From a virus (Duplodnaviria; Caudoviricetes): 64,000 nucleotides of DNA. Position numbers and translations under genes: made by a program. This document shows positions 10,247 through 62,700 of the stretch, piece after piece (position 1 is the stretch's first letter; every line of letters begins with the position of its first letter). The stretch is taken from the IMG/VR virus record IMGVR_UViG_2756170199_000003, positions 74,881 through 138,880 of that record, one strand, 5' to 3'. The notes below the pieces were generated by a model, which saw only the letters and a program-made list of their open reading frames with translations, searched no databases and had not been told where the DNA came from.

Positions 10247-12754
10247 ATGGCGGACTTGCTGAACGCATTGCAATCGATACCTGGCCGGCAGGCGTACTTT
10301 CTCGAAGTGCCCGGTACGGCAGCTGCCGCGGCGTTGTCCGTGGTGTCGTTCGATGCGACCGAAACGATGGGCTCGCCCATTGAGGTGAGCATCGAACTCA
10401 CCCATCCCCTGCAGCTCGCACGCGCGGACTTCCTGAACCGCGACGCCACATTCTCGATCGTGCCCGACGACGGTGTGCCGAAGAAGTTTTCGGGATACAT
10501 CGAGCGCTTCTCGACGATCAAGACCACGAAGGACTTCACCCGGTACCGTCTGGTCCTGAAGTCACATTTCGGGCGCCTGCAGGCGGTTACCAACACGCAG
10601 GTTTTCCAGCACCTCACCACCCCGCAGATCATCCGGCAGATCCTGAGCTCACACGGTATCAGGGATCACCAGATGTCCTTCCGGCTGCGCGGCAAATACC
10701 CCAAGCATCTGTGGCGTTTCCAGCACCAGATGACAGATTTTTCCTATGTGCACATGCTCATGGAAAAGGCTGGCATTTACTGCTTCGTCGTCGAGACCGA
10801 ATACGGTGACCAGATTGTTTTTGGTGACGACATCGACCACTACATCTACGACCCCCGTCTCATCGTCCCCTATCGCGAAGCAGCCGGCCTTGAAGCCGGT
10901 GGTAGTGAGGCGATAACGTCGATCAGAACACATAGCGTGACGGTGCCGCAGTCCATCGTCGTCGCTGACTACAACCCGGATCAGGCGTGGGAGCGTTTTC
11001 GAGATGAGGCCAACCTCGCCCCGCAGGACGAAACCACCTACGGCCAGACCTACATCTACGGCACCAACCACCTCGATCAGGACGGCGCCAAGTGGGAAGC
11101 ACAGCTGCGACATGAGGCGGCCCTCGCCCGCCAGGTGATCTACGAGGGTGAGAGCAATGTGCTAGCGCTTCAGTGTGCTCGTGTACTCGAAACAGACATC
11201 GCGCTACCCGACGCCCCGAAGGGCCAGGTGGTCATCGAAGTCAAGCACAGTGGCGCGCGCGACAAGGGCTATTCGAACACGTACAGGGCGATTCCTGCGG
11301 ACCGGCGCTTCCGGCTCCAGCTCGAGCCTTCGAATTGGGCAAAAATCCCGGGGACGCTTTCGGCACGAATTTGCAGTCCCGATAAATATTCCTTTGGCTA
11401 CCTCAATTCCGTTGGCTACTACGTCGTCAGACTCGATGCCGATTTTGGTACCTGGTCGAAGGGTGGCGAGAGCGTGCCGTTGCGTCTCGCAAAACCCTTC
11501 GCCGGCAAACTGCAGACCGGCATGCACTTCGTCGCGCTGGATAACGACGAGGCAAAGATCTCCTTCAGGGATGGGGACCCGGACAAGCCAGAAATCAGCG
11601 GCTTCCACCACCATAGCCAGGCCCGCGATCTGGTGACGAATGACCGCCGCTGGCTGTCCCGCAACATGATCCGTACGCAGAAGAACAACAAGCTGCGTAT
11701 GGAGGACTGGAACGGACAGGAAGGCATCAAGCTTAGCACGGACCACTCGGGCAAGTCACAGCTCAATCTCGGCTACCTCGTCAATGGCAAGCTTGAATAC
11801 CGCGGCGAGGGGCATGAGCTCCGCACATCGGGATGGGGGGTACTGCGCGCCGGCAAGGGCGTGATGGTGACCAGCTATGACCGCCCAGGCGCCACTGGCG
11901 CACAGCGCGACATGCAGGAGACGATGGCGCAACTGGACAGCGCGCTGGAGCTCGCCAAAGCGCTCGCGGCATCCGCCACCAGCGCCAAGGCGGAACCTGC
12001 CGACACCAACGCGCAGCAGCAGGTGAAGGATGATCTGGATAACCTGAAGAAGCCAGGCTTGCTGATGAGCACGCCAGCCTCCGCTGCATTGGTAGCGGCC
12101 GGTGGCATCCAGTTCTCGGCGGAAGACAACATCACTGGCGTAGCCGGCAGGAATGCTGACTTCAGTGTCATGAAACGCTTTACCGCCGCGGTCGGCGAGA
12201 AGATTTCGCTGTTCGCGCAGAAGTTCGGCATCAAGATCTTCGCAGCCAAAGGCCCCGTTGATTTCCAGGCACAGGGCGGGCCGATGTCGCTTACCGCGGC
12301 CAAGGACGTCAACGTCGGCAGCGTCAATGGCAAGGTCAATCTCGCGGCGGCCAAGGAAATCATCCTCGAATGCGGAGGTGCGTTCGTCCAGATCAAGGAC
12401 GGCAGCATCACGCTCGGCGGTCCGGGCGATCTGTTCTTCAAAACGATCACCGTACAGAAGAAAAGCAAAGCGTCGCAAACGCCAGCTTTCCCTGTCCTGC
12501 CCGATGGCAATATCTACGAGCAGGACTTCAAACTCGTCAATCACGCGGACGGCACCTTACTCCGGAACGCAGCATACAAGATCACGTCCGAAAGCGGCAC
12601 CCAGTTCGCAGGCGTCGCTTCGGACAACGCAATCACACGTCTTGCTGTGACCAGTCCCGCCGAGAAACTCACGGTCAAACTGAATTCCGAAGATGCCGAC
12701 ACCTATCACCAGCATCTCCGCGATGCGTGGGGCAACCCCGCATCCAACGATTGA
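10247..12754 (+). CDS. vgrG: Type VI secretion spike protein VgrG (DUF2345-type C-terminal region)
   Basis: gp27-like N-terminal hub, gp5 OB-fold (LRLAKPFAG..GMHF, GDPDKP), NNKLRMED, LNLGYLV, GHELRT, IILECGGAFVQIKDGSITLGGPG, and a short C-terminal extension. Confidence 0.95.
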   Translation: MADLLNALQSIPGRQAYFLEVPGTAAAAALSVVSFDATETMGSPIEVSIELTHPLQLARADFLNRDATFSIVPDDGVPKKFSGYIERFSTIKTTKDFTRYRLVLKSHFGRLQAVTNTQVFQHLTTPQIIRQILSSHGIRDHQMSFRLRGKYPKHLWRFQHQMTDFSYVHMLMEKAGIYCFVVETEYGDQIVFGDDIDHYIYDPRLIVPYREAAGLEAGGSEAITSIRTHSVTVPQSIVVADYNPDQAWERFRDEANLAPQDETTYGQTYIYGTNHLDQDGAKWEAQLRHEAALARQVIYEGESNVLALQCARVLETDIALPDAPKGQVVIEVKHSGARDKGYSNTYRAIPADRRFRLQLEPSNWAKIPGTLSARICSPDKYSFGYLNSVGYYVVRLDADFGTWSKGGESVPLRLAKPFAGKLQTGMHFVALDNDEAKISFRDGDPDKPEISGFHHHSQARDLVTNDRRWLSRNMIRTQKNNKLRMEDWNGQEGIKLSTDHSGKSQLNLGYLVNGKLEYRGEGHELRTSGWGVLRAGKGVMVTSYDRPGATGAQRDMQETMAQLDSALELAKALAASATSAKAEPADTNAQQQVKDDLDNLKKPGLLMSTPASAALVAAGGIQFSAEDNITGVAGRNADFSVMKRFTAAVGEKISLFAQKFGIKIFAAKGPVDFQAQGGPMSLTAAKDVNVGSVNGKVNLAAAKEIILECGGAFVQIKDGSITLGGPGDLFFKTITVQKKSKASQTPAFPVLPDGNIYEQDFKLVNHADGTLLRNAAYKITSESGTQFAGVASDNAITRLAVTSPAEKLTVKLNSEDADTYHQHLRDAWGNPASND

Positions 12755-12799
12755 CCGCGTATTTCTGAAAGCATTCCAGTAACCAAAGGTTCCGAGAAT

Positions 12800-13771
12800 A
12801 TGGGCAAACGCATTCCACAAGAAGCAGAAGATCCAGCCTACGAAAGTGACCAAACACGGCCTCAGGCAACCACGCCTGTCGCCAATCTTGCGGAGCCGAT
12901 CTCCAAGGGATACCTCTGCAAAAAGTGCTGCGCCGCACTTAACAAACCGCGTCGAAACCGGTTGAACCACCCGATGTACCAGCGCACCGTGACTCGCTCG
13001 ATCTGGGAAGACAACGTCGAAAAGCGACAGTATTTTCGCTATAAGGGCGAGGTCGGCTATGACATGACGAAAAAGCCACCGGCTCCGATCATGTCGGCCA
13101 AGAAAAAGGAAGAAAACCGCCCCAGCGAGTTTCCGTTAGCTGGAATCTGGCGCATAAAGCGCGAACTCCAAGCGGTGGTCGAAACTGCTGGAGAGGCCGC
13201 GGGAGACCTGATAACACGAAACGAGCTCGAAGCGCTTGGCGGTTCGGTATTGCGCATCCCAGACGTCATTGTCCTTCATTGTGATAGTGATCTTCTCAAA
13301 CAACTCGAATCCCAAACGGCCGATATCAAACGCTTCATTCCAGAACAGAAGAATATTGAGCGGATCGTTGAGGTTAAGTTCTTCGACGATACCCTCTCGG
13401 AATATCAAGGTCGCGCGTATAGTCAGATTGCAGGGCCAGCCGAATTCAACCTCCTTGAACCGACGAACCCAGATCCAGATTGCGGTTGCGGATGTCAGAA
13501 GGACGAAAAAAAACAGAAGACAGAGCAAAAGCAAACCTCTCGATCGTCTGCTTCTCAGCGTCCGCCAATTCCGTTCATTCCGCCTGTTACACCGCCGCGC
13601 GGCGGGAAAGATGAGGACCGTCTTATCGTTGACCCAGTCGCTTCGAGTTCATACGACGGCGAGCAATCATTGAGCGATGTATTACCCCGCACACCAACGA
13701 GCAACTTGTCAGGCTCCTCAGTGATACTGCTCGACGTGCTGCTTATACTCGCTGCGGCCGCAGCCCTTTAA
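12800..13771 (+). CDS. T6SS nuclease effector, VRR-NUC / PD-(D/E)XK (TseV-like)
   Basis: YKGEVGYDM, RIPDVIV and IVEVKF motifs. Sits between vgrG and a DUF3396-like gene. Lower GC than flanks. Confidence 0.75.
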   Translation: MGKRIPQEAEDPAYESDQTRPQATTPVANLAEPISKGYLCKKCCAALNKPRRNRLNHPMYQRTVTRSIWEDNVEKRQYFRYKGEVGYDMTKKPPAPIMSAKKKEENRPSEFPLAGIWRIKRELQAVVETAGEAAGDLITRNELEALGGSVLRIPDVIVLHCDSDLLKQLESQTADIKRFIPEQKNIERIVEVKFFDDTLSEYQGRAYSQIAGPAEFNLLEPTNPDPDCGCGCQKDEKKQKTEQKQTSRSSASQRPPIPFIPPVTPPRGGKDEDRLIVDPVASSSYDGEQSLSDVLPRTPTSNLSGSSVILLDVLLILAAAAAL

Positions 13772-13788
13772 CTGATCCAGACTCCGAA

Positions 13789-14808
13789 ATGACATCTGAC
13801 GAACTCGACGACTACGTTTACGACTGCGACCGCACAGCCCCTGACAGCCCTGAAGGAGCTGACTTCCGATACGTGGTGAAACTCGTACTTCGCGCCACGT
13901 TATTTTTTCGCGCAGGACACACGCAGGAAATTCGCCAGGGACTGAAGGCCTGCTTCGACGAGTATTTTCTGGCATTCGGCAAGAATCTGCATTGGGGATG
14001 GGAACCCCAACCATCCGGAAAGCCGACGCCTCGAATCTTCGATCAAAATCTTATCGATGCTACTCGTAGTGCCTTCGACAACACGAAAGAAGGTAGCAAC
14101 ATTGAACTCGCTTTCATGAGCGGATTTAACCAATACTACGTTGGCGATTATGGAATCAAGTGTCTGACCATGCCAAACTGGGAAGACTCAATGGGTTACG
14201 ATTCCTATTTCAGCTTCTGGTTGCCTTGTGATACTTATCATGAAGGCCGATGGGATGGTGGCAATTTCCCTGCCCATGAATTCCTGCTTGCGTGCTGCAA
14301 ACGTCTTAAAGCTTCACAAGGCTACGCTGGATTCGCTCTTGCGCTGCCGCACGAATATGCCAAATGGGAACCCTACGAACTGAAGTTGGCCCAAAAATAC
14401 TACGGACTGGAGATCGACAAGGCAGCGGCAACATCACTCATGATCGACGAGTGGCGCGGAGTCAAGGACGTCAACTGGTACACCATCCTTGGCGAACCCT
14501 ATGTTGAAAAATTAGGCGGCAACCACGCCATCCGCGCAAAGCTTGCAGCCCCCAACTTTCAGCTTTACGACTTTGGCGCAGGGATTACCATCCGGGCAGG
14601 CGCTGAACCTGAAATGGCTCCAGTAAGCAATGGTCTGCCATCTGCATATGTAGCAGTCAATGACGTCATTCGACCAATCAGGACGACACAAATCCGATCG
14701 ATGGGTCTTGGCTCAAACGCAGGCGAATTGCGCTTCAATATCCGACTGACTGACCTGTGGATGAGACGGTTTGATGCGCCGGGGATTTGGCCGCCGGCAC
14801 ATCCATAA
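13789..14808 (+). CDS. Cognate immunity protein, DUF3396 (TsiV-like)
   Basis: GYAGFAL, KYYGLEID, VKDVNWYTILG..YVEKLGG, IRAGAEP, WMRRFD pattern typical of DUF3396. Immediately downstream of the effector. Confidence 0.8.
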   Translation: MTSDELDDYVYDCDRTAPDSPEGADFRYVVKLVLRATLFFRAGHTQEIRQGLKACFDEYFLAFGKNLHWGWEPQPSGKPTPRIFDQNLIDATRSAFDNTKEGSNIELAFMSGFNQYYVGDYGIKCLTMPNWEDSMGYDSYFSFWLPCDTYHEGRWDGGNFPAHEFLLACCKRLKASQGYAGFALALPHEYAKWEPYELKLAQKYYGLEIDKAAATSLMIDEWRGVKDVNWYTILGEPYVEKLGGNHAIRAKLAAPNFQLYDFGAGITIRAGAEPEMAPVSNGLPSAYVAVNDVIRPIRTTQIRSMGLGSNAGELRFNIRLTDLWMRRFDAPGIWPPAHP

Positions 14809-14906
14809 CACGGCCAATCGTGTTCGATTAACAGCGGCAGGCCCCCGTCCCGTATATCGCAACGGTTTGCGACGACGGTGGCCTGACCGCATCGAATGAG
14901 GTTTGC

Positions 14907-15539
14907 GTGACAAGTAATGAACGTACGGCTCACCGCCGTGTACTGCCATTTTTCTGCTCACCGCCGGCATGGGTTCTGATTCGCGTCGATGTGCCGGGAC
15001 TCTCCATTGTGAGAGAACGCACCGAGCATGGTGGAGCGGTGCTGTGCTTCCTGTCGCTACTCGACGCGATGATCGAGGTCGTCCATGCCGCACGCGTTGG
15101 CAGGGAGTTGCGTATCCTTCGCGCATCAGATGTCGATTTCAGTCTGTTCCGGGACCTCGACGGACAAGGACTGCTCGCGAGCCTGCATAGTGCATGGCTC
15201 GCATCGGGTCCGAAGATCCTTGCCCGACCATCTGGCGTCTTGGCTAGGTTCACAACGGACCTACATGAATGGGCCGGCGATCCGGTTTTCTTCGAAGTTC
15301 AGTCGGACACGCTTGGCTTGTTCAACGACACCTATGAACTGGCAGGTCTTTTCGCCTGGCGCGAGACCAATCAAATCGTACAGCGATGGGACGAGGCACG
15401 CCTTCGCGACGCCGCGAAAAGAGCGCTCAATGCGGTTGAGGTGACAGGCGGTCAAGCGGAGGACTGCAACGGCTTGGCCCTGTTCAATCCTGAGTCAATG
15501 GAATGGCACTTCGTGCCGCCCAGAGAGCAGGAATCGTGA
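14907..15539 (+). CDS. Hypothetical protein
   Basis: 210 aa ORF with no recognised motif. Start uncertain. Confidence 0.5.
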   Translation: MTSNERTAHRRVLPFFCSPPAWVLIRVDVPGLSIVRERTEHGGAVLCFLSLLDAMIEVVHAARVGRELRILRASDVDFSLFRDLDGQGLLASLHSAWLASGPKILARPSGVLARFTTDLHEWAGDPVFFEVQSDTLGLFNDTYELAGLFAWRETNQIVQRWDEARLRDAAKRALNAVEVTGGQAEDCNGLALFNPESMEWHFVPPREQES

Positions 15540-19470: not shown

Positions 19471-19587
19471 GTCAGGGAGTCGTCACACACAACAGCTACG
19501 GGATCATGGATGCTGGTTGGGCAGCATCCATGATCCCGTAGCTATTTTTCTTCGCAATCCGAACTCATACACAAGGACCAATACGCT

Positions 19588-25027: not shown

Positions 25028-25543
25028 CTACCTGCGCGCACCTTGGGATGGACTGGTTTCTTTACGTGAGGGACGCGACGCTTCGCCTGAAGCCAGCATC
25101 GTGCCGCGGCAGCCTAGCGCACCGCACCGGCAGGCATACTGCGCGCGCGTGGCACGGGACGTCCGTACCGGCAGCTCCAGCGCGTAGTCGATAAAGAGCT
25201 CTTCGCCTGCGGCAATGCTGCGCGTCGCCTCGATATAGACGCGCCCGTTGTCCTCTACCGCCTCGCAGTTCGCGCTGCAGGCGTGATTGAGCCATCGCAC
25301 CGTGTTACCACCGCGGCCGCCATCGATCACCCGCCCGTCGGCAAGTCCAAAGAGAAACGTGTGGGCTTCGTGCTCGCGTTTCGAGTGAAAGCGCATCGCC
25401 TCGGTCCAGCTTGTCACAAACCCCTTGTATTGCGCGATGCGGTCACCTGCGGCCAGTGCCCGCTGTGCAAACACCCCCCTGCCGTGAACTGGCGAGTGTC
25501 GCACCACGAACCGCCTTACGTTGGACGTCAGTTCCCGTTTCAT
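25028..25543 (-). CDS. SET-domain protein lysine methyltransferase with post-SET cysteines
   Basis: SPVHGRGVFA, RWLNHACSANC, GEELFIDY and CRCGALGCRG motifs. Confidence 0.92.
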   Translation of the reverse strand: MKRELTSNVRRFVVRHSPVHGRGVFAQRALAAGDRIAQYKGFVTSWTEAMRFHSKREHEAHTFLFGLADGRVIDGGRGGNTVRWLNHACSANCEAVEDNGRVYIEATRSIAAGEELFIDYALELPVRTSRATRAQYACRCGALGCRGTMLASGEASRPSRKETSPSQGARR

Positions 25544-25590
25544 TTTTACCTGCCGTGCTCATGCTGTGTCAGCCTGGATGGAGAGCAGAC

Positions 25591-27789
25591 ATGGGTCGCG
25601 CAACCGATAACCCCTTTGTCCTGCCAGCGCGCCAGTATAAGAGAGATATCGACGTCCTGGAGCACTACGTTCGACAGAGTGTTCACTATCTCGCGACGAT
25701 GACCGGCGCGCCACTTGCCGAGTGTCTGAGGTTCGTCCAGTCGGGACTCTCTCCCGGTGGCAGGTTCGCTTTTCAGGATCCCGGTGTCACGTATCTTCAG
25801 CGCCTTGAGAACGGCGATCGTGAGCTCAGGAACAGTACGCTTCAGGCCTTTCTGTCCTCATCCATCGGACAGCACGAACTCATCGCGCCGACGTTCACGA
25901 CGTACGTGCATCCGCAGGTCAGGGAGTCCCTGCTTACCGGCTTTATCGGCGCCAACAAGGTGCAACGCGGAATTGCCAAGCGCGCGATGTTCCAGGCCCG
26001 CAGCGACGGCAATACGCTGCTCGAGATCCTGAAGGACAACGAGCAGACGAACATGAAGCTCGCGAGCAACGCCTGCTCCGGGGCACATGTTTCGGCCTCG
26101 ACGCCGCTCTTCAATCTCTCCGCTCACTCTACCCTCACCTCGAACTGCCGCGTGACGGCGTGCTACGGCTCCGCGAACAACGAGAAGCTCCTTGCAGGCA
26201 ACCGGCACTACTGGTCGCCCGACGTGGTGAAGAACAACATCACATCGATCCGTCTCGCCACCGACTACGAAGCACTCGAGGCCGCCATGCAGCGTTACGG
26301 GATCCGTCATCCGGAAGTCGGCGAGACGATGGACTGCATCCTGCGCTCGACCCGCTTCTATTTCCGCGATCCGGCTCATCACCAGCTGATCGGGGAGTAC
26401 GTCAGCAAACTCACGCCCATCGAACGCAGCGCGTTTGTCTATACAGGCGATCTCTATCACCTGAGGCTCCATAACGACGCCGTTATCCGCACCTTTATCG
26501 GGAAGCTCGCGACGCGTGTCGGCGTCGTGCATCCCACCCCCGATGCCATTCTTGCCGCGGCATTGCCAGAGGTCACGGCACTCGCCGTTCAGCTATGCGC
26601 GCAGGAGATGCGCGGCAGGAAGCTCGATGGCGTTGCCGGTACGCCCGCTCAGGGTATCGTTGCCTCCACCGTCGTCAATATCCAGGCAACGCTTGCCGAA
26701 TACCGCGATTTCATCCGAGCGTTCTTCGTCACAAAAAGCGTGCCGGCGTCGGTCGCAGCCTTTCCCGAAAGCATCCGGCGCGTGGCGCTCATGGGTGACA
26801 CGGACTCAACACTTTTCACCGTGCAGGACTGGGTGATCTGGTACAACCACGGGCGTCTTGGCTTCGACGCGGCCTCGCAGGCCGTGGCGGCCGCACTCGT
26901 CTTTCTCGCGTCGATGAGCGTGGCTCATCTGCTCGCCAGGATGTCGGCAAACTTCGGCGTCGAGGAAAAACGCCTCTTCGACACCGTGATGAAGAACGAA
27001 TACCGGTTCGTGATGTTCACGCCTACACCGGTTGCGAAACACTACTATGCCCTGATCGACTGCCGCGAGGGCCATCTCTACGTCGAACCTGAAGCGGAGA
27101 TCAAGGGCGTGCATCTGAAGTCATCGAGCGCACCACCTGGCATTACCGCACGCGCCAAGACACTCATGATCGACATCATGAAAGCGGTTGCACGCGAGGA
27201 GAAGCTCTCGCTCACCCGTATCCTCGGCGAGATTTCGGCAATCGAACACGACATCATCGCGTCGGTCATGGAGCGCTCAAGCTGCGAGTATTTCCGCATC
27301 GGCCAGATCAAGCCCGCAGAAGCCTATACGCTGGCTCCCGAACGCTCCATCTACGCTCACTACCTGTTCTGGAACGCAACCTTCGGGCCACGTGACGGTA
27401 TCGCAGGCATACCGCCGTACACTGCCGTCAAGATTCCCGTGGACATGGGCTCGCCCACGCGCCTGCAGACGTGGCTTACCACGATGCAGGACCGGACACT
27501 TGCGGCTCGTCTCGCTGCCTGGCTTGCCGCGCACGGCCGACGCTCACTCACGACGCTTTACGTGCCACTCGAGATAATCGAGGCGCACGGCATTCCGCCC
27601 GAAATCCTTCAGCGTGTAGCAATCAGGAAGCTCGTCAAGGACACCATGAAGACCTTCTATCTTGTGCTCGAGAGTCTGGGTGTGGGAATGGAGAACCGTC
27701 AGATCACGCACCTTGTGAGCGATGACTATCCACCTGCTGCCCCGAAATCAGCGACGACATCCGAAGGGACAGCCCCAGTGACGTCATAA
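25591..27789 (+). CDS. Split family-B DNA polymerase, polymerase subunit (phiKZ gp50-like)
   Basis: Start MGRATDNPF after GGAG. Motif B K...NACSG, HSTLTS.CR, motif C GDTDS, MKNEY, KHYY, EIKGVHLKSS. Confidence 0.88.
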   Translation: MGRATDNPFVLPARQYKRDIDVLEHYVRQSVHYLATMTGAPLAECLRFVQSGLSPGGRFAFQDPGVTYLQRLENGDRELRNSTLQAFLSSSIGQHELIAPTFTTYVHPQVRESLLTGFIGANKVQRGIAKRAMFQARSDGNTLLEILKDNEQTNMKLASNACSGAHVSASTPLFNLSAHSTLTSNCRVTACYGSANNEKLLAGNRHYWSPDVVKNNITSIRLATDYEALEAAMQRYGIRHPEVGETMDCILRSTRFYFRDPAHHQLIGEYVSKLTPIERSAFVYTGDLYHLRLHNDAVIRTFIGKLATRVGVVHPTPDAILAAALPEVTALAVQLCAQEMRGRKLDGVAGTPAQGIVASTVVNIQATLAEYRDFIRAFFVTKSVPASVAAFPESIRRVALMGDTDSTLFTVQDWVIWYNHGRLGFDAASQAVAAALVFLASMSVAHLLARMSANFGVEEKRLFDTVMKNEYRFVMFTPTPVAKHYYALIDCREGHLYVEPEAEIKGVHLKSSSAPPGITARAKTLMIDIMKAVAREEKLSLTRILGEISAIEHDIIASVMERSSCEYFRIGQIKPAEAYTLAPERSIYAHYLFWNATFGPRDGIAGIPPYTAVKIPVDMGSPTRLQTWLTTMQDRTLAARLAAWLAAHGRRSLTTLYVPLEIIEAHGIPPEILQRVAIRKLVKDTMKTFYLVLESLGVGMENRQITHLVSDDYPPAAPKSATTSEGTAPVTS

Positions 27790-28157: not shown

Positions 28158-29279
28158 TCATGCATTTACCGTGCGCACGGCCACGCGTGTCACGTTTGCC
28201 TTGCGCTCAATCGTGTCGAGCTCATCGAGCACGGACTGGCGCGTGAGCGCGTCCATCACACCGTCAAACAGACGCTCCTGTCTCCAGCCGAGAAATGTAC
28301 GCTCAACCAGATTGATTTCGGACTGGTTGCGTGTTCGCGGTGAACCCGCCGTCGCGCTCAATACAAAATCAAGCATCGGCAGGCGCGCGATCGCGAGTGC
28401 CCACATAACCTGTCTTGTCGGCGCCATGTCAGGAAGATGCATGGCCTCTTCAAGGTTGCGGCGCGCTGCCACCGGCACGCTTTGTAACACCCCCACGAAA
28501 TTCTTGCCTTGCCTCTCCAGGTTCACTACGATTTCCTCATAACAGCGATCGAGTCGTGTCGCTACGTCGACCAGGGCAAATGGATGCTGCCGGGTCGACC
28601 ACCCTGCAGGTACACGCGCCTGCACACAGCGAATCCGGTTGAGGAGAGTCTGATCGAGTTGACTGAACAGCATGTTGGGTAGCACGAACCCGTGAACGAA
28701 CATCGTGAGGGATTTTTCATCCACGCCACCCGTCTTTCTTTTTTCCTCTTCACGAAAGGCGCGATACTGAACCATCAACATGGGCAAATTGATAGCGATC
28801 ACCGCCATTCCTGTTTCCGACCCTGCAAACCGGCCATCCGGGAGATTCATTCCCAGATCGCTGCCCGAATGTCTCAGCACGCGTAGAGGTGTGGCATTGC
28901 GCCAGTCGCGATGGGCAAGCATGAGATCAAAATACTCTGTATGAACAACGAGAATCTCATCGTGGCCCGCGCCGTAGAACACGCCATTCCAGATTTTCCC
29001 ACGGGATATTGAGGACGTCATCTTCATTGCCGTCGACAGATTGAGCGCCATCGCGTCGACATTGGCATGGTAACGCTCGAGCGTGAGCGCGAGCGGCACA
29101 TCGACGCTCTGCACCAGCCTGACCACAGGGTGATCGCTTCTGACTGCCCCCGCAGCATGCCGGTAGTAGCGGATGACCTGCCCGAGATTGCGGCGCAGGC
29201 CCGCGCGCACGGCTTGCCACGCCCCTGGCACCTGAATGCCCTGGAGCGAGCGTGGTACCAGGTTGAATAACTTGTGCAT
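28158..29279 (-). CDS. Conserved phiKZ-like protein (gp52-like by synteny)
   Basis: 373 aa on the opposite strand between DNA polymerase and chimallin, as in phiKZ-like genomes. FVHGFVLPNML motif. Confidence 0.6.
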   Translation of the reverse strand: MHKLFNLVPRSLQGIQVPGAWQAVRAGLRRNLGQVIRYYRHAAGAVRSDHPVVRLVQSVDVPLALTLERYHANVDAMALNLSTAMKMTSSISRGKIWNGVFYGAGHDEILVVHTEYFDLMLAHRDWRNATPLRVLRHSGSDLGMNLPDGRFAGSETGMAVIAINLPMLMVQYRAFREEEKRKTGGVDEKSLTMFVHGFVLPNMLFSQLDQTLLNRIRCVQARVPAGWSTRQHPFALVDVATRLDRCYEEIVVNLERQGKNFVGVLQSVPVAARRNLEEAMHLPDMAPTRQVMWALAIARLPMLDFVLSATAGSPRTRNQSEINLVERTFLGWRQERLFDGVMDALTRQSVLDELDTIERKANVTRVAVRTVNA

Positions 29280-29600
29280 GGTTCGATATATCGAGTGAAA
29301 GAGATTCGCCCATAAAATTTGAGCGCCCCGGTGCCGCCAGGCGTGGCTGGCACGCGTGTACGGGTTGCTGCCCGCTCTACCGGAGAAGGCAAGTGCCGGA
29401 ATTCTTCATCGCGTAAGAATTTACTGCGGCCGCCCATATCCTGTGGAGAGGACGTTCGCATTCCCCTCCATCTGGCTGGCTGAATGAGCCCGGCCAGGGA
29501 ATGCCGTGCCATGTCTCTTCATGTTGACGTGATTTTTCGTTCCAGCAGTGCACCTTGTGCGCGTCGCCGGATGTGGATCTATTCAACGGAATTTCACTGA

Positions 29601-29608
29601 TATATCAC
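29601..29608 (+). promoter_or_regulatory. TATATCAC putative phage early promoter of chmA
   Basis: About 70 nt upstream of AAAGGA-ATG 29676. Confidence 0.65.
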
Positions 29609-29675
29609 CCACTTGTCATTAGCTAGGAATGCTAACGACCGTATACGTTATTCAACCTTGACGAAAGGAATTGCC

Positions 29676-31685
29676 ATGGCAGTGAAACTCCCTTCAAACC
29701 ACGCCGGTGACGAGCCGGGTGCAGACTCGAGCATGGCCCAGGCGTTCAGCCAGGCCCAGCAGACGGAGAGCGAGCGGTTCTCGTCGCAATCCGGAGCCGC
29801 AGAGGCACGCGAACGTCCAGCAGGCACGGGTGGCCACTTTGCATTTTCGAGTTCGACCCATTTCCTCGAGACCGTGCTCCCGGCCAATTCGGAGAGCGAG
29901 GTTCTCACGAAGATCCACGACATGCTCAAGGCGCGGTTCGTATCCTCAAGCCCCGAGCACGAACTCACACTCGTGCCGGTCAATCGCGATGACACCACGC
30001 AGCTCGAATTTTCGGTCATGGTGATCGCGTTGCGCCACAAGTCATGGCCCGAACTTGGTGTCGCCTACTACACCATGATCCTCGAGGGTTCGGCACCTGA
30101 ACTCCCGCCGATCCTGCGCTCCGAAGGCGGCGAAACATTCGATGATCCGCGCTTTCCCAGCGACATGAACACGGCGGCGCTTGACGCCGAGGTCCGCGAG
30201 CGGCTGATGCGCGTCTTTCCGCAGCATCCGCTGTGGAGCGCTGGCGTGGGTGTAGTGCGGCGCGACTTCAACCCGGAAAACAGGGAGCTGGCCCACAGGC
30301 TGGCCAAGCGCGTGAGCGACGCGTGTGTGCTGGAGCTCAAGCGACACCAACCAGGCGGATTCCACGATCTGAACCTGGTCGAAGCCGTCGGCAGCGATAC
30401 GCTGGTCATCCGTCCGACCTTCGGCAACGGGCAGATTTACGACGTCATGGGTCATCCGGTCCGCGGTGATATCGAGATCCTCAGTACGATTCCGGGCAAA
30501 CAGGTTCCTGGTCAGCCGGAGCTGACGATGCGCGACACGGTCGTGTCGGTGGTCCACGGTTTCGTGGATCTCGTCTGGTCGCCTGAAGAACCGCAGATCC
30601 TGCCGTACATGCAAACGCCCGCGGCCGCCGGCGTCAACTCCGCGCTTCGCCGGAAGTACTACCCGCGCTTTGTGATCACAAACTGCGGCGCCGCCCAGGT
30701 GCCGACGCTGGGCGGCCAGTTGCTCTCGATCATGATAGCGACCGCGTGTCTGTCCCCGGGTCTGTGGGTGGAAGCTTTCCGTCCCCCACAAGGTCATGCG
30801 AGCGGCAATGAGGTCAACTGGAGAAATATCGGCGCCCTGAACATCGAGGCGAACCTCGAGAACGACCCGAGCGGCTACGGCACACCGCTGAACAGCATGC
30901 TCGACTCGTTCATCCGCGAGACGGGCCCGAACGGCAGCCCGTTCCGCACGCTCATCGCCAACACCATCCGTGAAAAGCTGGTGGTCTCGATGGACATTGT
31001 CGAATGCGGTATCGAGTCGTATCTGAGCGAAGTGCTCTATCTCGCCGCCGAGGGCAATTCAAGCAACAGCCGGCCGGCCAACATGCAGATCATCCAGTCG
31101 ATGGAAGATCTGACAGACGGCCACTTCCTGCCGATTTACAACCGCCTCTGGCAGCAGGCCAACCCTAAGCTCAGCCTGCGGCCCGAGGACCGGCGTCTGG
31201 TCACCGACGAGTGCAACCGGATTCTCAAGGGAACCCTCGTCTACGGTGGCGAACTGATGTCGACGGACTATGTGGACTACCTCGCGAACCTGAACGTCGC
31301 GGGTCCGAACAATCACGAGGATGTCCTCACATGGTCCGATACCTTCTCGAACGTCGGCATCAAGCTCAACCAGCGCGTGGCCAAGCGCTCGAAGATCACC
31401 AAGGCGATCGCTGGCCCGGCGACCAAGTTCACCGCGGCAGCCCGCCGCGTCACACTTGCGAGCGACGTACTCGCCGCAGGGTTGATGGCGCTCGGCGAGC
31501 TCAAGCTGAACATGGTGTTTCAGTCAGCGGGGCTCGGACGGCCGCAGTACCAGCGTGCGGTCAATCCGTTCCTCGACGCCGCTGCGCTCGATCCGAATGT
31601 CAACGCCGGCTTCTTCGGCAGCGGCTTCGGGACTCCGTCGGCGCAATACGGCAACCGTGCGGGCTTTAACCGCTTCATGTCCTGA
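29676..31685 (+). CDS. chmA: Chimallin, major phage nuclear shell protein (phiKZ gp54 / 201phi2-1 gp105-like)
   Basis: ~670 aa immediately upstream of the nvRNAP beta' gene, the conserved chmA locus. Disordered N-terminal arm, GFVDLVW, YYPRFVIT, W..AFRP, RNIGALN, and a Gly/Phe-rich C-terminal tail. Own promoter motif and strong terminator. Confidence 0.78.
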   Translation: MAVKLPSNHAGDEPGADSSMAQAFSQAQQTESERFSSQSGAAEARERPAGTGGHFAFSSSTHFLETVLPANSESEVLTKIHDMLKARFVSSSPEHELTLVPVNRDDTTQLEFSVMVIALRHKSWPELGVAYYTMILEGSAPELPPILRSEGGETFDDPRFPSDMNTAALDAEVRERLMRVFPQHPLWSAGVGVVRRDFNPENRELAHRLAKRVSDACVLELKRHQPGGFHDLNLVEAVGSDTLVIRPTFGNGQIYDVMGHPVRGDIEILSTIPGKQVPGQPELTMRDTVVSVVHGFVDLVWSPEEPQILPYMQTPAAAGVNSALRRKYYPRFVITNCGAAQVPTLGGQLLSIMIATACLSPGLWVEAFRPPQGHASGNEVNWRNIGALNIEANLENDPSGYGTPLNSMLDSFIRETGPNGSPFRTLIANTIREKLVVSMDIVECGIESYLSEVLYLAAEGNSSNSRPANMQIIQSMEDLTDGHFLPIYNRLWQQANPKLSLRPEDRRLVTDECNRILKGTLVYGGELMSTDYVDYLANLNVAGPNNHEDVLTWSDTFSNVGIKLNQRVAKRSKITKAIAGPATKFTAAARRVTLASDVLAAGLMALGELKLNMVFQSAGLGRPQYQRAVNPFLDAAALDPNVNAGFFGSGFGTPSAQYGNRAGFNRFMS

Positions 31686-31695
31686 TGTTCTTCAG

Positions 31696-31732
31696 GCCCG
31701 GCAGGGGAAGTTTCCCTGCCGGCTTTTTTTTC
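31696..31732 (+). terminator. Rho-independent terminator after chmA
   Basis: CCGGCAGGGGA-agt-TTCCCTGCCGG followed by T8. Confidence 0.8.
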
Positions 31733-31837
31733 CGCGCAGGTATTTGAGCCTGTACGGCCTGTGCATAGGTTTTTATTGAACCGGGTAATCCAGTGCAGGT
31801 ACCCCCTTCATGCGCACCACCCGCACGGAGAAAGAAA

Positions 31838-33343
31838 ATGGGAATCAGCCTTCGCCCGATCGACCACGACCAGGTCTTCCATTACCGCACGTCCCGGGAA
31901 CCCATCATCGTCAACGATCTTCCCGACACCACAACCGAAGAAAAGAAATATGTCGATAACCTCATCTTCACGCGCTACGATCTCATCCACTCCGACCTGC
32001 TGTCGAACATCCCCTCGTGTGCCTGCGGCAATACGCTCGGGGTAGACAAGCTCGGCAACGGTCACGACATTCGCGCGGTCGTCTGCCCGGACTGCCACAC
32101 CGAAGTCACCGCGCCGTATCAGGGCGATCTCGAACCGCTCATCTGGATGCGCGCGCCCAAAGGTGTGAAGGCGCTCATCAAGCCGCGCATGCTGACGATG
32201 CTCAGCGAGCATTTCCAGAAAAACAGCTTCGACGTGATCCGCTGGATCTGCGATCGGACGTACAAGGCGCCCGTAAAGGAGCCGCCGGTCATGGAGGCGG
32301 TCCGCGCCTCAGGCCTGCCCCGCGGTTACAACCATTTCGTCGAGAACTTCGACGCCATCATGGCGTTCCTGTTCAACCTGAAGCTCTATCCAAAGAAGGA
32401 ACTTGCGCCGCTCAGGGAATTCATCACGCGGTACCGAAACGTCATCTTCTCCCAGTATCTGCCGCTACCGAACCGGTCGCTGCTGGTGCTTGAGGAAACG
32501 AACCACGCGGCTTACACCGATTGCACCGCGCCGATTGCAATCGACGCGATCCGCATGATGGTCGGGATCGATTCGCCGGCGGCGGTGTATTCCGACATCG
32601 TGCGTGAAAACCGCACGATCCGCATGCTCTTCCAGACGGCCGGCTATTACGACATCACATTGCGGGAGTTTCTCGCGTCCAAGTCGGGCGTGTTCCGCAA
32701 GAACGTGTTCGGCACGCGCTGCCACTTCGCTTTCCGTGCGGTCATCAGTTCGAACACAGGCCCTCACGACTACTCCGAGGTGCATATTCCGTGGAGTGTC
32801 GGGGTCGTGGTGTTCGAGTTGCATCTGAAGAACTTCCTGATGCGCGAAGGCATGACGCCGTGGGAAGCGGAAACGTACCTGAACGCACACGTCAACCAGT
32901 ACAGCGAGAAGCTCGATGCGTATTTCAAACGCCTGATCGAAGAGTCGCCCTGGCCTGGGATACCGGTGACCGTGCAGCGAAATCCGAGCCTGCATCGTGC
33001 CAGTATCCAGCTGCTGTTCATCACGCGCGTCACCCGCGACGTCGCGCAGCCGACAGTCGTATTCAGCATTCTCGACGTCACCGGGCCCAACGCGGACTAC
33101 GACGGCGACATGATGAATCTCGTGCTCCCCATCGATCACGTCCTAACCCGCGAGCTTTATCCCCTCATGCCGCACCAGAGCGCATTCAGCATGAACGAGC
33201 CGCGTGCACTTTCGAAGAATCTCTCGATGCCAAAGACCGTCGTGCTGACGATCAGCAACTGGATGCACTGGCCAGAGTCGGAGCTGGACGCACCCGACCC
33301 CGCAGTATTGCAACGCATGGCGCTCATCCCCGAGGCGGCATGA
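31838..33343 (+). CDS. Non-virion RNA polymerase beta' N-terminal/catalytic subunit (phiKZ gp55-like)
   Basis: Zn-finger C.CG...C..C, KSGVFRKNVFGTR, RAVISS, QRNPSL, catalytic NADYDGD. Confidence 0.93.
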   Translation: MGISLRPIDHDQVFHYRTSREPIIVNDLPDTTTEEKKYVDNLIFTRYDLIHSDLLSNIPSCACGNTLGVDKLGNGHDIRAVVCPDCHTEVTAPYQGDLEPLIWMRAPKGVKALIKPRMLTMLSEHFQKNSFDVIRWICDRTYKAPVKEPPVMEAVRASGLPRGYNHFVENFDAIMAFLFNLKLYPKKELAPLREFITRYRNVIFSQYLPLPNRSLLVLEETNHAAYTDCTAPIAIDAIRMMVGIDSPAAVYSDIVRENRTIRMLFQTAGYYDITLREFLASKSGVFRKNVFGTRCHFAFRAVISSNTGPHDYSEVHIPWSVGVVVFELHLKNFLMREGMTPWEAETYLNAHVNQYSEKLDAYFKRLIEESPWPGIPVTVQRNPSLHRASIQLLFITRVTRDVAQPTVVFSILDVTGPNADYDGDMMNLVLPIDHVLTRELYPLMPHQSAFSMNEPRALSKNLSMPKTVVLTISNWMHWPESELDAPDPAVLQRMALIPEAA

Positions 33344-35977: not shown

Positions 35978-36612
35978 AACCAACTTCAGAAGTTCCTTCA
36001 ACTGAAGCGCGCGTTGCACCAGCTGCTACGCATCCGGGCAATTTCATCTGCAGCGTGGCGCAGTCCCTGTGTGAAATTTCCGCCGAGGATGTCGCAAAAC
36101 TTCCCGAAGACCAGTTCGTCAACGTTTTCCTGCCGCTGCTCGCAGGCGATACCGAACTACCTTATCCCGCGACGATCGCCGACTGGATATCGATCGCTGG
36201 CAGCCCTTACAAGTGCGTCGATGTATTTGATAATTCAACGGGTGAAATCCTGTTTCGCGTGCCGCCCTTTTTCGATTATCACGGCGTAAATCCTGTCAGG
36301 GACATTAGCAAACGCGGCGGCGTAGACAGACCCGCCCAGCCCGCTTTTACCGACATCATCGCAACCGCCGCGAATCTCGCCGGTCTTCACGCCAATCAGG
36401 CGCGGGCCTTCGTCGAGCAGTCGTTGCGCTCGCGCGCGCATCTCATGAACAGCAACGTCCTGCTCGCGCGCCATGTCCTGCAGTTCAACGCCATCCTCAA
36501 ACGCTACGGGCGCAAACCGCTGTTTGCCGAATCGGAACAGGCGGCCATTGCTGCACGGGACGCGACAGCGCGCGATTGCCACGCAGCACCCGACGTATAT
36601 GAGGACTTCTGA
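35974..36612 (+). CDS. Conserved phiKZ-like hypothetical protein
   Basis: E..FVNVFLP, W..IAG.PY..VDV and LF.VPP motifs. Precedes sbcD-like gene. Confidence 0.6.
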   Translation: MKPTSEVPSTEARVAPAATHPGNFICSVAQSLCEISAEDVAKLPEDQFVNVFLPLLAGDTELPYPATIADWISIAGSPYKCVDVFDNSTGEILFRVPPFFDYHGVNPVRDISKRGGVDRPAQPAFTDIIATAANLAGLHANQARAFVEQSLRSRAHLMNSNVLLARHVLQFNAILKRYGRKPLFAESEQAAIAARDATARDCHAAPDVYEDF

Positions 36613-37714
36613 TATCCACGTCGCTGTTCTCAGCGATATCCATCTCGGCAACCGACGCACACCTACCCGAGACATCATCCGCAATCTCGACGCCGCCTTC
36701 CCTGATAACGGGGAAACCGCCCAGCTTGATCTGATCTGTCTGGCAGGCGATGTCTTCCATACGCTCTTCACGCTCAACGATCACGACGTTCTGGAAATCG
36801 ACTTCTGGATCTGCCGGCTCCTCACCCTTTGCAAGAAACACGACATCATCCTTTACGTGGTTGAGGGAACCCGCAGTCACGACTGGGAACAACTCGCGCG
36901 TTTCGACGCGATTAACCAGTTCGCTGGCATTGGCGCGAAGCTCCGGTACGTGAACCAGATCAGCCTCGAGTACGAACCTTCGCTCGACATCTGGGTGGGC
37001 TGCGTGCCGGACGAGAGCGCACCGACCACTGATCAGGCGCTGGAACGCTTCATGCAGCTCATGAAGGCAAAGGGAATTGTTCAGGTCGACCTGATGTTCA
37101 TGCACGGCAGCTTCGATTTTCAGGTTCCGGCTGTCTCACGCACACAGAAGCACGACTCGAAAGCATGGCTGGCCATTACGCGGTATCTGGTGTTTGTGGG
37201 CCATGAACATATCCATTCAAGCTTCGAGCGCATCTACGCCCAAGGGTCGTTCGACCGGATTGCCCACGGCGAGGAAGGACCGAAAGGGCATCTTCGTGCC
37301 ATCCTGCATCACAACGGCGAATACGAAATCACTTTCGTCGAGAACACCGGTGCGCGACGGTACATCACGATCGCCTGCACTGATCTCGGTGTGGAAGACG
37401 CGTTGCGAACAATCGATGCCCGTCTGCGCGAGCTGCCCGAGCATTCCGCCGTGCGTATCGAGGCGAATCACGACCATCCGCTGCTCGCCGACATGGATGC
37501 ACTCGTGCGCCTCTACCCGTTTTTCAGCTGGAGCAAAAATCCGCTGCATGCGGAGAACGAAGCGCTCACGACATACGACGAGGACGATGTTTTCGAACCC
37601 ATCACGATTCACGCCGGCAATATCCTGCAGCTCGTAAGCGAACGCATGATCGCCGCGGGCGTCTCCCCCACTGTGCTCTCACTCGCACAGCAAAAAATCC
37701 AGGAATGCATGTGA
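36599..37714 (+). CDS. SbcD/Mre11-like metallophosphoesterase nuclease
   Basis: SDIHLG, AGDVF, EGTRSHD, MHG, GHEH and GSFDR motifs. Confidence 0.88.
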   Translation: MRTSDIHVAVLSDIHLGNRRTPTRDIIRNLDAAFPDNGETAQLDLICLAGDVFHTLFTLNDHDVLEIDFWICRLLTLCKKHDIILYVVEGTRSHDWEQLARFDAINQFAGIGAKLRYVNQISLEYEPSLDIWVGCVPDESAPTTDQALERFMQLMKAKGIVQVDLMFMHGSFDFQVPAVSRTQKHDSKAWLAITRYLVFVGHEHIHSSFERIYAQGSFDRIAHGEEGPKGHLRAILHHNGEYEITFVENTGARRYITIACTDLGVEDALRTIDARLRELPEHSAVRIEANHDHPLLADMDALVRLYPFFSWSKNPLHAENEALTTYDEDDVFEPITIHAGNILQLVSERMIAAGVSPTVLSLAQQKIQECM

Positions 37715-49437: not shown

Positions 49438-49530
49438 GCGCCAGTGGCAAGGAGCGGCAACCAGAAAATACCTCCCCAGGGCATCTGTTGGCAGACAGAT
49501 GCCCTCCTTTTCTTCATCGAGATTTTTGTC

Positions 49531-51078
49531 ATGGCGGAGTTACGCATATCGACACGATCGCATCATTTCGTGGTCGACCAGATGTCGCCCCAGGGCAGGC
49601 AGGCCACGGAGAGATTCGCAAGGCAGTTCATCCACTATGGTCGCCGGCAACGCGCCCAACGCTATAACAGGTACAGCGCCCGCAACGCCCGCTCCGTCAG
49701 CGAGTACTCTGCGTGGCGCGAGGACCGCCGCGAGTGTCGCTTCCATATCAACGTGCTCGAGCGCTTCGAGCAACACCTCAAGGACTACGGACTCGATCAT
49801 GAATCTCTGGTGGAGCGGGTCGCAGAAGTTCCACCTCCTGCATGCAGGATCGCGCTCCTGATTCGCGAAGGCTGGTCGCTGCGTGACTACCAGGAGCCGG
49901 CTGTCAATTACGTCACTGCGGATGCGGGCTCACGATCACGGTTTCTGGGTCTGCAGACTGGCAAGGGCAAGGGGATCACTGCGCTTTTCGCAATCAGGGA
50001 TCTCGCAGTGAGGACGCTCGCCTTCCTGCAACCGAAGTACATCGAAAAATGGGTGATGGACATCCGCGAGATCTGTCAGGTCGAACTCGAAGACGTGATG
50101 GTCGTGCGCGGCGTTCAGCATCTCAAGGCACTCCTCACGATGGCCGGTTCTGGCAGTCTGCACAGCCCGATCGTGATCATCAGCAGCAAGACCATGCAGC
50201 GCTGGATCAACGTCTACGAGCAATATGGCGAGGAGACGCTCAAGATGGGCTACGCCTGCCTGCCTGATCAACTGATGGGTTGGCTTGGGGTGGGCTTGCG
50301 GCTGATCGATGAAGTGCACCAGCATTTTGCGATGCAGTTCCGTCTGGATCTCTATACGCACTGCGAACGTTCGTTGTCGCTTTCTGCAACGCTGCTGCAC
50401 ACCGACGGCTTCCTGAACCGCATGTACGAAGTCGCGTATCCGGACGCGACGCGTTACAACGGGCCGGCCTATGACCGGTATGTTCGCGCCACTGCCCTCT
50501 TCTACCGGTTCAGGCACCCACGACATATCCGCTTTCTCGATCCCCTGAGCCACAGCTATTCGCATTATCGCTTCGAAATGAGCGTAATGAAGGATCCGGC
50601 CGTGCTGGACAGCTATCTGGATCTGATCGACAGCATTGTGAAGTCGAAGTATGAGCTCACTTATCGGCCCGGAGAAAAGCTCGTGATCTTCTTCGGCTCT
50701 GTAGCGATGTGTACGCGCGCGACAGCGTTCTTTCGCGCGCGCTATCCGGGCCGGGATGTACGGCGTTATGTTGAGGAGGATCCGTTCGCGAATGCGATGG
50801 AGCCCGACATGGTCATTACGACCTTACAGTCGTACGGCGCCGCATTTCATCCGAAGGAGCTATCCACCGTCATTCTGACGGTCGCTGTGAACAGCCTCCA
50901 GGCCAATCTGCAGGTCCTCGGACGGCTGCTTCCACTTTCGGCTGGGAAGACTCCGGAATTCATCTATCTGGTCTGCATGGATATCGCACAGCACCGGATC
51001 TATCACGAGAGCAAGGTCGAGCTCTTCCGGCAGCGCGCATTGCACTGCGAAACGCAGTACGTGCATGCGCCGATATGA
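49531..51078 (+). CDS. Superfamily 2 DEAD/DEAH helicase (phiKZ gp75-like)
   Basis: Q motif LRDYQ, QTGKGK, DEVH, SAT and Q.LGR motifs. Confidence 0.88.
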   Translation: MAELRISTRSHHFVVDQMSPQGRQATERFARQFIHYGRRQRAQRYNRYSARNARSVSEYSAWREDRRECRFHINVLERFEQHLKDYGLDHESLVERVAEVPPPACRIALLIREGWSLRDYQEPAVNYVTADAGSRSRFLGLQTGKGKGITALFAIRDLAVRTLAFLQPKYIEKWVMDIREICQVELEDVMVVRGVQHLKALLTMAGSGSLHSPIVIISSKTMQRWINVYEQYGEETLKMGYACLPDQLMGWLGVGLRLIDEVHQHFAMQFRLDLYTHCERSLSLSATLLHTDGFLNRMYEVAYPDATRYNGPAYDRYVRATALFYRFRHPRHIRFLDPLSHSYSHYRFEMSVMKDPAVLDSYLDLIDSIVKSKYELTYRPGEKLVIFFGSVAMCTRATAFFRARYPGRDVRRYVEEDPFANAMEPDMVITTLQSYGAAFHPKELSTVILTVAVNSLQANLQVLGRLLPLSAGKTPEFIYLVCMDIAQHRIYHESKVELFRQRALHCETQYVHAPI

Positions 51079-53613: not shown

Positions 53614-53650
53614 GTCGAGCGTTCCATTTCGAAAAATGGATTGAAAACGC

Positions 53651-53678
53651 TTGACTGGCTATTTCACTGCGCTACACT
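53651..53678 (+). promoter_or_regulatory. Sigma70-like promoter antisense to rep leader
   Basis: TTGACT-N16-TACACT. Confidence 0.55.
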
Positions 53679-53684
53679 CGGGGC

Positions 53685-53795: not shown

Positions 53796-53863
53796 TGGCA
53801 GTTATTTCACTGTGTCGTCCTTATCCGTACTACGGATCGCAATAAAATCAATCACTTAGTGTT

Positions 53864-62619: not shown

Positions 62620-62700
62620 CCTTCAACTCTACTGGTTCTCATGCCAACATAAAGAATAGAAGGGATCCAACCACATTCAAGCACTACGCGCCGTCTGGTA

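Follow-up and report, generated by a model that had tools for sequence, protein, structure and literature searches.

A chimallin gene and a plasmid replication and partition module on one chimallivirus element of the Burkholderiaceae

What is a gene for the shell of a phage nucleus doing on DNA that also carries the replication and partition genes of a plasmid? The question is raised by a 64,000-nt stretch of viral DNA (positions 74,881–138,880 of the 138,880-base IMG/VR record IMGVR_UViG_2756170199_000003), referred to here as the window and numbered from its first base, in which a chimallin gene (chmA) is followed at some distance by a rep-parB-parA module. The explanation we favour, with moderate confidence, is that the element represented by the window is a phage-plasmid chimallivirus, maintained as a plasmid and with chmA and its other early genes off by default.

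In outline, host replication and partition would keep such an element in the cell as a low-copy plasmid. In the carrier cell chmA and the other early genes would be off by default, because their promoters are not of the host type and need a phage polymerase that is absent from that cell. When transcribed, chmA would be read alone, from a promoter of the phiKZ early class, by a virion RNA polymerase (vRNAP) entering with the DNA, and its transcription would end at its own intrinsic terminator. Both the silence of chmA during carriage and the plasmid maintenance itself are what we infer from the features described below.

The shell gene and its transcription signals

The chmA locus comprises the following features:

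29578–29640, plus strand: conserved promoter block, without change in four elements that share 49–92% identity in ChmA
29664–29669, plus strand: ribosome-binding site AAAGGA, 6 nt 5' of the ATG
29676–31685, plus strand: chmA, encoding chimallin, the major phage-nucleus shell protein (P0002), 669 amino acids, recognised by Pfam, PHROG, profile and fold
31698–31731, plus strand: intrinsic terminator with an 11-bp GC-rich stem (31698–31722), a 3-nt loop and T8

The longest frame that includes chmA spans 29613–31685, but its TTG start (690 amino acids) was discarded, as the conserved ribosome-binding site and an MAV start common to the relatives and to phiKZ gp54 favour the ATG at 29676. In an upstream alignment of four elements the start region G.AAGGAA..GCCATGGCAGT is kept, the first codons for MAV included, and AAGGAA is invariant.

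The encoded protein matches the Pfam chimallin family PF25677 over residues 184–605 (37.0 bits against a curated cut-off of 27) and PHROG 4795, 'nuclear shell protein' (phrog_4795), over residues 99–599 (1.5e-49); an exhaustive search gathers 681 representatives of the family at E <= 0.001. A search of the Protein Data Bank (PDB) with the single ChmA sequence gave only a weak match of 30 bits, and a profile was therefore needed to reach the chimallins there. With this profile, built from 148 relatives, the chimallin structures of Goslar, 201phi2-1 and phiPA3 were matched over the full length at 1e-77 to 1e-84. The nearest protein from a cultured phage, that of Burkholderia phage FLC9, is 30% identical and phiKZ gp54 24%, and DNA searches of phage and plasmid collections with the chmA locus returned no match.

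An AlphaFold (AF2) model built on the family alignment has a predicted local distance difference test score (pLDDT) of 84.6 and a predicted template modelling score (pTM) of 0.83. Averaged in blocks of 10 residues, the core lies at pLDDT 87–98 over most of residues 71–610, with three loops at 64–77, whilst values below 50 are confined to residues 1–20, 29–50, 622–630, 637–639 and 642–669. Of the C-terminal residues, Y625, R627, G659 and R666 do not vary in the near clade, and R627 hardly varies across the 148 sequences. Compared with the PDB by Foldseek (significance limit E <= 0.001), the model, which has the two-domain core fold of chimallin, finds nine significant matches, and all nine are chimallins (ranks 1–9; E 1.8e-31 to 8.4e-29; template modelling (TM) score by target 0.79–0.87). 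Rank 10 falls to E 3.7e-3 and TM 0.07, with a probability below 0.1.

An initial annotation, made from the letters of the window, had proposed a chimallin-like gene of about 670 codons with a strong ribosome-binding site and disordered N- and C-terminal arms, and had named AlphaFold modelling followed by Foldseek as the check, a fold unrelated to ChmA being the outcome that would count against it. The 669-residue frame and its conserved AAAGGA, the family and profile matches together with the gene order described below, and the low pLDDT over much of residues 1–50 and 622–669 all agree with that proposal, and the only folds matched were those of chimallins. By homology and on the predicted structure, the identity of the frame as an intact and presumably functional chmA of a Burkholderiaceae chimallivirus is as good as settled. 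The flexible terminal segments should, by analogy with known chimallins, link protomers into a lattice enclosing the replicating phage DNA.

By profile and fold the protein belongs with ChmA of other nucleus-forming phages (phiKZ gp54, 201phi2-1 gp105, Goslar chimallin and phiPA3 PhuN; PF25677; PDB 7SQQ–7SQV, 8FNE and 8IGG). It is similar to them in length (669 residues here, 626–640 there) and in the model surrounds a confident two-domain core with low-confidence terminal segments, and with phiKZ gp54 it shares the MAV start, the layout of an early promoter and a place between gp52-like and gp55-like genes. It differs in being only 18–24% identical to the solved or model proteins, in having a GC-rich host and in changing fast within its lineage. 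By itself, chmA is what such a phage would be expected to carry, and it is a new member of the family.

The gene is under purifying selection. Compared with a 92%-identical copy on a 275-kb Joint Genome Institute (JGI) contig, the ratio of non-synonymous to synonymous substitution (dN/dS) is 0.15 (dS 0.25, dN 0.038), and for its neighbours it is 0.06–0.13.

Around chmA, the window contains the following phage genes:

50–10025: sheath, virion proteins and terminase
25411–27789, plus strand: divergent family B DNA polymerase, phiKZ gp50-like (PF20286, 1.4e-223; phiKZ synteny)
28158–29279, minus strand: gp52-like gene, the divergent upstream neighbour of chmA (phrog_3938, 6.4e-78; BLASTP to phiKZ gp52, 28% identity, E 7e-34)
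31838–33343, plus strand: N-terminal beta' subunit of the non-virion RNA polymerase (nvRNAP), phiKZ gp55-like, the downstream neighbour of chmA (phrog_2987, 2.4e-137; Pfam RNA_pol_Rpb1_2)
36473–37714: SbcD, the counterpart of phiKZ gp65
49444–51078: helicase, gp75-like

Between SbcD and the helicase lie gp68-, gp69- and gp70-like genes and two RNA polymerase beta genes. In phiKZ the order is gp50 (DNA polymerase, plus strand), gp52 (minus strand; annotated as a structural head protein), gp53, gp54 (shell, plus strand) and gp55 (RNA polymerase, plus strand), continuing with gp65 (SbcD), gp68–gp74 (parts of the nvRNAP) and gp75 (helicase), and the window is collinear with phiKZ from gp50 to gp75. 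The gp52-like gene has the strand and place of its phiKZ counterpart, so that the position first assigned to the frame, between a gp52-like gene and nvRNAP beta' as at the ChmA locus, reproduces the phiKZ order gp50–gp55. Split RNA polymerases and a chmA gene adjoining a gp55-like subunit make up the genomic setting of a chimallivirus, and a vRNAP subunit and further core genes are present in the full-length relative.

Upstream of chmA, the promoter block contains AATTTCACTG (29590–29599) and TATATCAC (29601–29608), followed by an initial transcribed stretch that is likewise conserved, TTGTCATTAGC.AGGA.TGCTAA. About 60 nt around the motif are unchanged in the four elements, and the flanking sequence varies freely on either side. 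The layout, AATTT-N6-TATATCAC (AATTTCACTGA-TATATCAC), ends 68 nt before the ATG and is the same as that upstream of phiKZ gp54, where AATTTGAGATT-TATATTAC ends about 72 nt before the ATG. The consensus of the phiKZ early promoters is TATATTAC, preceded in 201phi2-1 by a TTT element (PMC7058600, Table 2), and transcription of the phiKZ early genes is the task of a virion RNA polymerase that is injected along with the DNA (PMC7618050). In the window TATATCAC is found six times against 0.38 expected, a count that no shuffled sequence reached; all six copies are on the plus strand, and five precede plus-strand genes (two small open reading frames (ORFs), chmA, the gp68-like gene and an nvRNAP beta gene).

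At the other end of the gene, the terminator folds at -22.5 kcal/mol (z -2.75), and a downstream alignment shows its hairpin and T-run to be kept in relatives, including elements whose ChmA is only 49–55% identical. Since chmA has a promoter and a terminator of its own and its upstream neighbour is read in the opposite direction, it is a transcription unit in itself, as had been proposed at the outset, with both the phiKZ-type early promoter and the terminator conserved in relatives. On the analogy with phiKZ, early, phage-polymerase-dependent, monocistronic expression of chmA is well supported; its early timing would follow that of the phiKZ early class.

Three further observations concern the transcription signals. 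A motif at about 31770–31785, TTTTTATTGAACCGGG, precedes the gene for nvRNAP beta', shows no change among four elements and differs from the TATATCAC class; it may be a second type of promoter. Next to the TATATCAC site at 19069 lies a perfect palindrome with a 20-bp stem (19495–19542) that is terminator-like on both strands. A hairpin (UUAGC...GCUAA) predicted in the 5' untranslated region of chmA was set aside, as the leader folds no better than shuffled sequences (z -0.3 to -0.5).

The plasmid module and the elements that carry it

Immediately behind the gp75-like helicase, at a place occupied in phiKZ by small genes only, the window carries three genes (together 52366–56097, minus strand) of plasmid type:

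52366–53613, minus strand: Rep, a plasmid-type replication initiator ('Replication protein O' in Burkholderiaceae plasmids), assigned by its plasmid matches
53864–54883, minus strand: ParB-family partition protein (weak Pfam ParB_N and HTH_ParB matches; TIGR00180, 4.6e-13), 90.6% identical to the copy in the Paraburkholderia adhaesiva element introduced below
54856–56097, minus strand: large ParA partition ATPase of the RepA/SopA type (TIGR03453, 2.2e-63)

Rep matched no Pfam or NCBIfam family, but over about 90% of its length it shares 50–58% identity with genes from 117 plasmid records of Burkholderiaceae, in several of which the gene stands at position 1; among 50,697 phage records it had no match. 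ParA is 67% identical to the ParA of a Caballeronia megaplasmid and 98% identical to the copies in two related elements (G001:C5 and G219), whereas its identity to any phage record is at most about 35%, the best matches including phage-plasmids of the N15/PY54 type. The closest plasmid in PLSDB reaches 67.5% for ParA and 58% for Rep; the copies in sister phage elements reach 90–98%. The three genes and their order are those of the parA-parB-'replication protein O' modules of Burkholderiaceae megaplasmids and chromids, from which the module of the window differs in being embedded between phage core genes.

Between 49.7 and 188.6 kb, a contig of Paraburkholderia adhaesiva ZD32-2 measuring 284,264 bp (G001:C5) is collinear with the window record. 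As the record is not a whole replicon, the case for a plasmid-like element rests on the rep-parB-parA module of the window together with relatives of full length, of which there are five:

275,198 bp: JGI contig
278,988 bp: IMG/VR G217, metagenomic, with direct terminal repeats and a CheckV completeness of 100%
282,688 bp: contig of Paraburkholderia sp. HC6.4b
284,264 bp: P. adhaesiva G001:C5
286,074 bp: Paraburkholderia sp. BCC1886 G185:C11, whose ends overlap by exactly 125 bp

Because of that overlap, G185:C11 can be regarded as having been assembled as a circle. The P. adhaesiva assembly consists of exactly five contigs (3.38, 1.91, 0.91, 0.49 and 0.284 Mb), one of which is the element; in this strain the element appears as a replicon of its own, although a persistent infection would give the same picture. 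The 'plasmid-like replicon' of the initial annotation is therefore right as regards the module, which is real, and as regards the relatives, which appear as separate replicons in isolates, but not as regards the window record itself, a provirus cut of about half an element.

In the window record and five relatives (G001:C5, G185:C11, G217, G219 and G221) the module lies about 22–25 kb downstream of chmA. Identities to the window proteins are as follows (genes on the relatives were called by a simple ORF choice weighted by third-position G+C content (GC3)):

G001:C5: ParA 98%, Rep 56%, ChmA 55%
G219 (HC6.4b-type cut): ParA 98%, Rep 77%, ChmA 49%
G217: ParA 90%, Rep 65%, ChmA 35%
G185:C11: ParA 46%, Rep 66%, ChmA 34%
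G221: ParA 46%, Rep 62%, ChmA 35%

Searches of four large, related viral contigs from metagenomes (G216, G218, G222 and G223) did not find the module; a Caballeronia arationis contig (G220) ends about where the module would lie, which makes its missing match uninformative. At the DNA level parAB is 90.7% identical between the window record and the P. adhaesiva element, compared with about 75% for the backbone, and the module has therefore either been exchanged among elements or been held under much tighter constraint. ChmA itself stands at the other extreme. At 54.7% identity it is the third lowest of the 54 proteins shared by the window record and G001:C5 (median 80.6%), and at 35% the seventh lowest of the 78 shared by G001:C5 and G185:C11 (median 57%). 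It is thus amongst the fastest-diverging proteins of the lineage despite purifying selection, and ParA can be 90–98% identical where ChmA is only 35–55% identical.

The phage part of these elements appears complete in its main functions: sheath, terminase, virion structural proteins, internal head proteins, fibres, RNA polymerases, DNA polymerase and helicases are present (major capsid and portal proteins are not named individually). Their accessory content varies. In the P. adhaesiva element, chimallivirus genes occupy 49.6–266 kb and flank the plasmid module on both sides, whilst the first 49.6 kb and the last ~18 kb (266000–284264) hold a complete type VI secretion system (T6SS) cluster (TssF, TssA, TssM, a Tle3 effector, VgrG, TssC, TssK, an OmpA-type TssL and ClpV) along with MFS transporters, an aldehyde dehydrogenase, a GMC oxidoreductase and porins, some 67 kb in all. 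In G185:C11 a variable region of 77 kb has fibre-like proteins and an NAPRTase in place of the T6SS. That five elements with different accessory content all measure 275–286 kb fits a headful packaging limit, and suggests that they are still packaged.

The spacer between rep and parB drew attention for two reasons. On the strand opposite to parA-parB-rep, within 53651–53800 (plus strand), there is a promoter-like site, TTGACT-16-TACACT. Behind it come about 110 nt of structured sequence (-49.7 kcal/mol, z -4.3) that form two hairpins with CAGTTTCCAGCTGG, and then a terminator. This stretch is almost identical in the P. adhaesiva element and has no Rfam match, an Rfam search of the whole rep-par region having yielded nothing meaningful; its appearance is that of a counter-transcribed RNA for copy control, of the kind found in repABC plasmids. 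The second point is a repeat, ATTTCACTG, present in four copies in the window (29591, 53661, 53804 and 53869; 0.42 expected), one abutting the TATATCAC of chmA and three in or near the spacer. A shared operator, through which a plasmid protein would repress chmA, was considered and rejected: all three spacer copies are mutated in the P. adhaesiva element, in a spacer that is otherwise about 95% identical, whereas the chmA copy is kept. The spacer repeats are probably due to chance; the chmA copy is more readily taken, by analogy with phiKZ and 201phi2-1, for the TTT element in the upstream part of an early promoter.

Plasmid, persistent virus or relic

Phage-plasmids such as P1, N15/PY54 and SSU5 combine a phage genome with a plasmid initiator and ParAB and exist as extrachromosomal replicons. 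Rep, ParB and ParA in the window, at a place conserved in five relatives, give the present elements the same combination. A host-dependent initiator, moreover, would have little use within a shell from which host proteins are kept out, and so points to a plasmid state without a shell. In such a state chmA would be silent by default, its promoter not being of the host type, which gives concrete form to the silencing that the initial annotation had called for. A fuller picture would be of a temperate nucleus-forming phage with a plasmid prophage, its DNA naked in the cytoplasm under rep-parABS, its lytic programme locked by promoters that need phage RNA polymerases, and its induction dependent on host-driven expression of one polymerase set. 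We offer this picture tentatively, as one for which the balance is close but tips slightly towards doubt.

Several points weigh against the phage-plasmid explanation. The window record is classed by IMG/VR as a provirus with a CheckV completeness of 52%, a cut of about half an element; the gene is found in only 2 of 213 genomes of Paraburkholderia species; and Pfam searches of the small ORFs around the module recognised no repressor. Sigma-70-like sites, none of which was seen in 27.5–34.5 kb of the window and two in 16–36 kb (7.1 +/- 3.1 expected), come from a crude consensus count and are weak evidence that the promoter is not of the host type. If the vRNAP is injected with the DNA, furthermore, early genes, chmA included, should fire on entry, a difficulty for the establishment of a plasmid state. 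Finally, virulent chimalliviruses without plasmid genes are already known to persist in isolate assemblies (10.1101/2024.12.31.630880; PMC12768965), and presence in an assembly is for that reason no proof of lysogeny.

The last point supplies the main rival: an ordinary virulent chimallivirus that persists in a carrier state or as a 'bacterial assembly-associated phage' (BAPS), its rep-parAB genes being passengers or serving lytic replication and its chmA acting in the lytic cycle only. Isolate assemblies often contain Goslar-like and Seoul-like chimalliviruses, which are regarded as non-temperate (10.1101/2024.12.31.630880; PMC12768965), and the present elements resemble persistent virulent jumbo phages (Goslarvirus, Seoulvirus, Bapsvirus) in appearing as separate isolate contigs with chimallin genomes of ~240–280 kb; the rarity of the present elements in Paraburkholderia, the lack of a recognised repressor and the normal early type of the chmA promoter fit this account. 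It has more difficulty with the module. A screen of persistent jumbo phages for plasmid replication and partition genes found none beyond stray ParB matches, ParA and plasmid Rep being absent (10.1101/2024.12.31.630880), whereas the lineage described here has a full rep-parB-parA set in each of its members for which that position could be examined. A passenger would not be expected at one and the same position in the window record and five relatives with ParA alleles 46–98% identical, nor to be better conserved in its parAB DNA than the backbone, and a role in lytic replication would require a host-type initiator to work within a shell that keeps host proteins out. The P. adhaesiva element, with its ~67 kb of T6SS and metabolic cargo on a separate contig of a five-contig assembly, likewise speaks against this rival. 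On balance we regard simple persistence as unlikely, whilst treating it as a serious contender.

Rather less probable is a phage-derived megaplasmid that no longer forms infectious virions, with chmA either a relic or put to a new use such as walling the plasmid off from host nucleases. The bacterial cargo that the P. adhaesiva element has gained, by replacement or addition, and the behaviour of this 284-kb element as a plasmid-sized replicon would be in keeping with such a history. A relic, however, should not be under the purifying selection seen in chmA and its neighbours (dN/dS 0.06–0.15), nor be accompanied by an intact sheath, terminase, virion and non-virion RNA polymerase subunits, both polymerase halves, helicases, internal head proteins and fibres. 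The narrow range of element sizes is as a headful limit predicts, one metagenomic copy (G217) has terminal repeats, and the promoter retained by chmA is one for a phage polymerase and not for the host enzyme. Given the full phage programme and a chmA promoter of the virion polymerase kind, reuse of the shell to enclose the plasmid, which the initial annotation had raised beside silencing, is, on indirect evidence, unlikely, and nothing found here speaks for it. An assembly or binning artefact, in which phage and plasmid DNA had been misjoined and the shell gene lay on no plasmid-like molecule, might be suspected of a record cut computationally as a provirus from a larger contig, but can hardly be credited when the same junctions recur, in collinear order, in independent isolate assemblies and metagenomes and phage genes flank the cassette on both sides in G001:C5.

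Other features of the window and wider significance

Some features of the window stand apart from the question of maintenance. Directly after the terminase, at 10247–15539, a VgrG-like gene (835 amino acids) and two further genes coincide with a dip in G+C content (0.55); the nearest copy of this VgrG in the P. adhaesiva element, 37% identical, lies within its T6SS cluster and not after the terminase. A region at ~58290–62780 is missing from the collinear part of the same element and encodes a 743-residue protein of no recognised family (59028–61259, minus strand) and a tyrosine recombinase (61240–62619, minus strand); it has the look of a small mobile element inserted into the phage backbone. 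At the end of the window a gene for an SOS-response-associated peptidase (SRAP; 63092–64000, plus strand) runs off the record and is 90% identical to the gene at the matching place in P. adhaesiva. Just before the DNA polymerase gene, relatives have a SET-domain (methyltransferase-like) gene (L001 5341–5856, L002 5213–5653 and L003 5313–5747, all on the minus strand), with an SH3DP-domain gene upstream of it (both from precomputed Pfam annotation). The window ORF at 25028–25543 (minus strand) has the same length as this SET-domain gene.

A chimallivirus built as a phage-plasmid appears to be undescribed. Full-text searches of the literature for 'chimallin' together with 'phage-plasmid' returned only the preprint on persistence (10.1101/2024.12.31.630880), and similar searches found no description of a Paraburkholderia jumbo phage of this kind; two reviews of nucleus-forming phages from 2025–2026 make no mention of temperate or plasmid forms. 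No phage-plasmid is known to form a nucleus or to bring RNA polymerases of its own. The module also sets the lineage apart from phage-plasmids already in collections, those of the N15/PY54 type included, whose ParA proteins are at most about 35% identical to that of the window and amongst whose fellow phages Rep is unmatched.

Nucleus-forming phages have been treated as strictly lytic, and the shell is given as the reason why they escape defences that target DNA. If one lineage of them also lives as a plasmid, its DNA would go unshielded for generations, and how it survives restriction and CRISPR would come into question, as would the means by which a programme started by an injected polymerase is held off. 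Carrier strains, for which Paraburkholderia adhaesiva ZD32-2 and Paraburkholderia sp. BCC1886 and HC6.4b are the candidates, would then offer a culturable and genetically tractable hold on a chimallivirus genome resident in a cell without infection.

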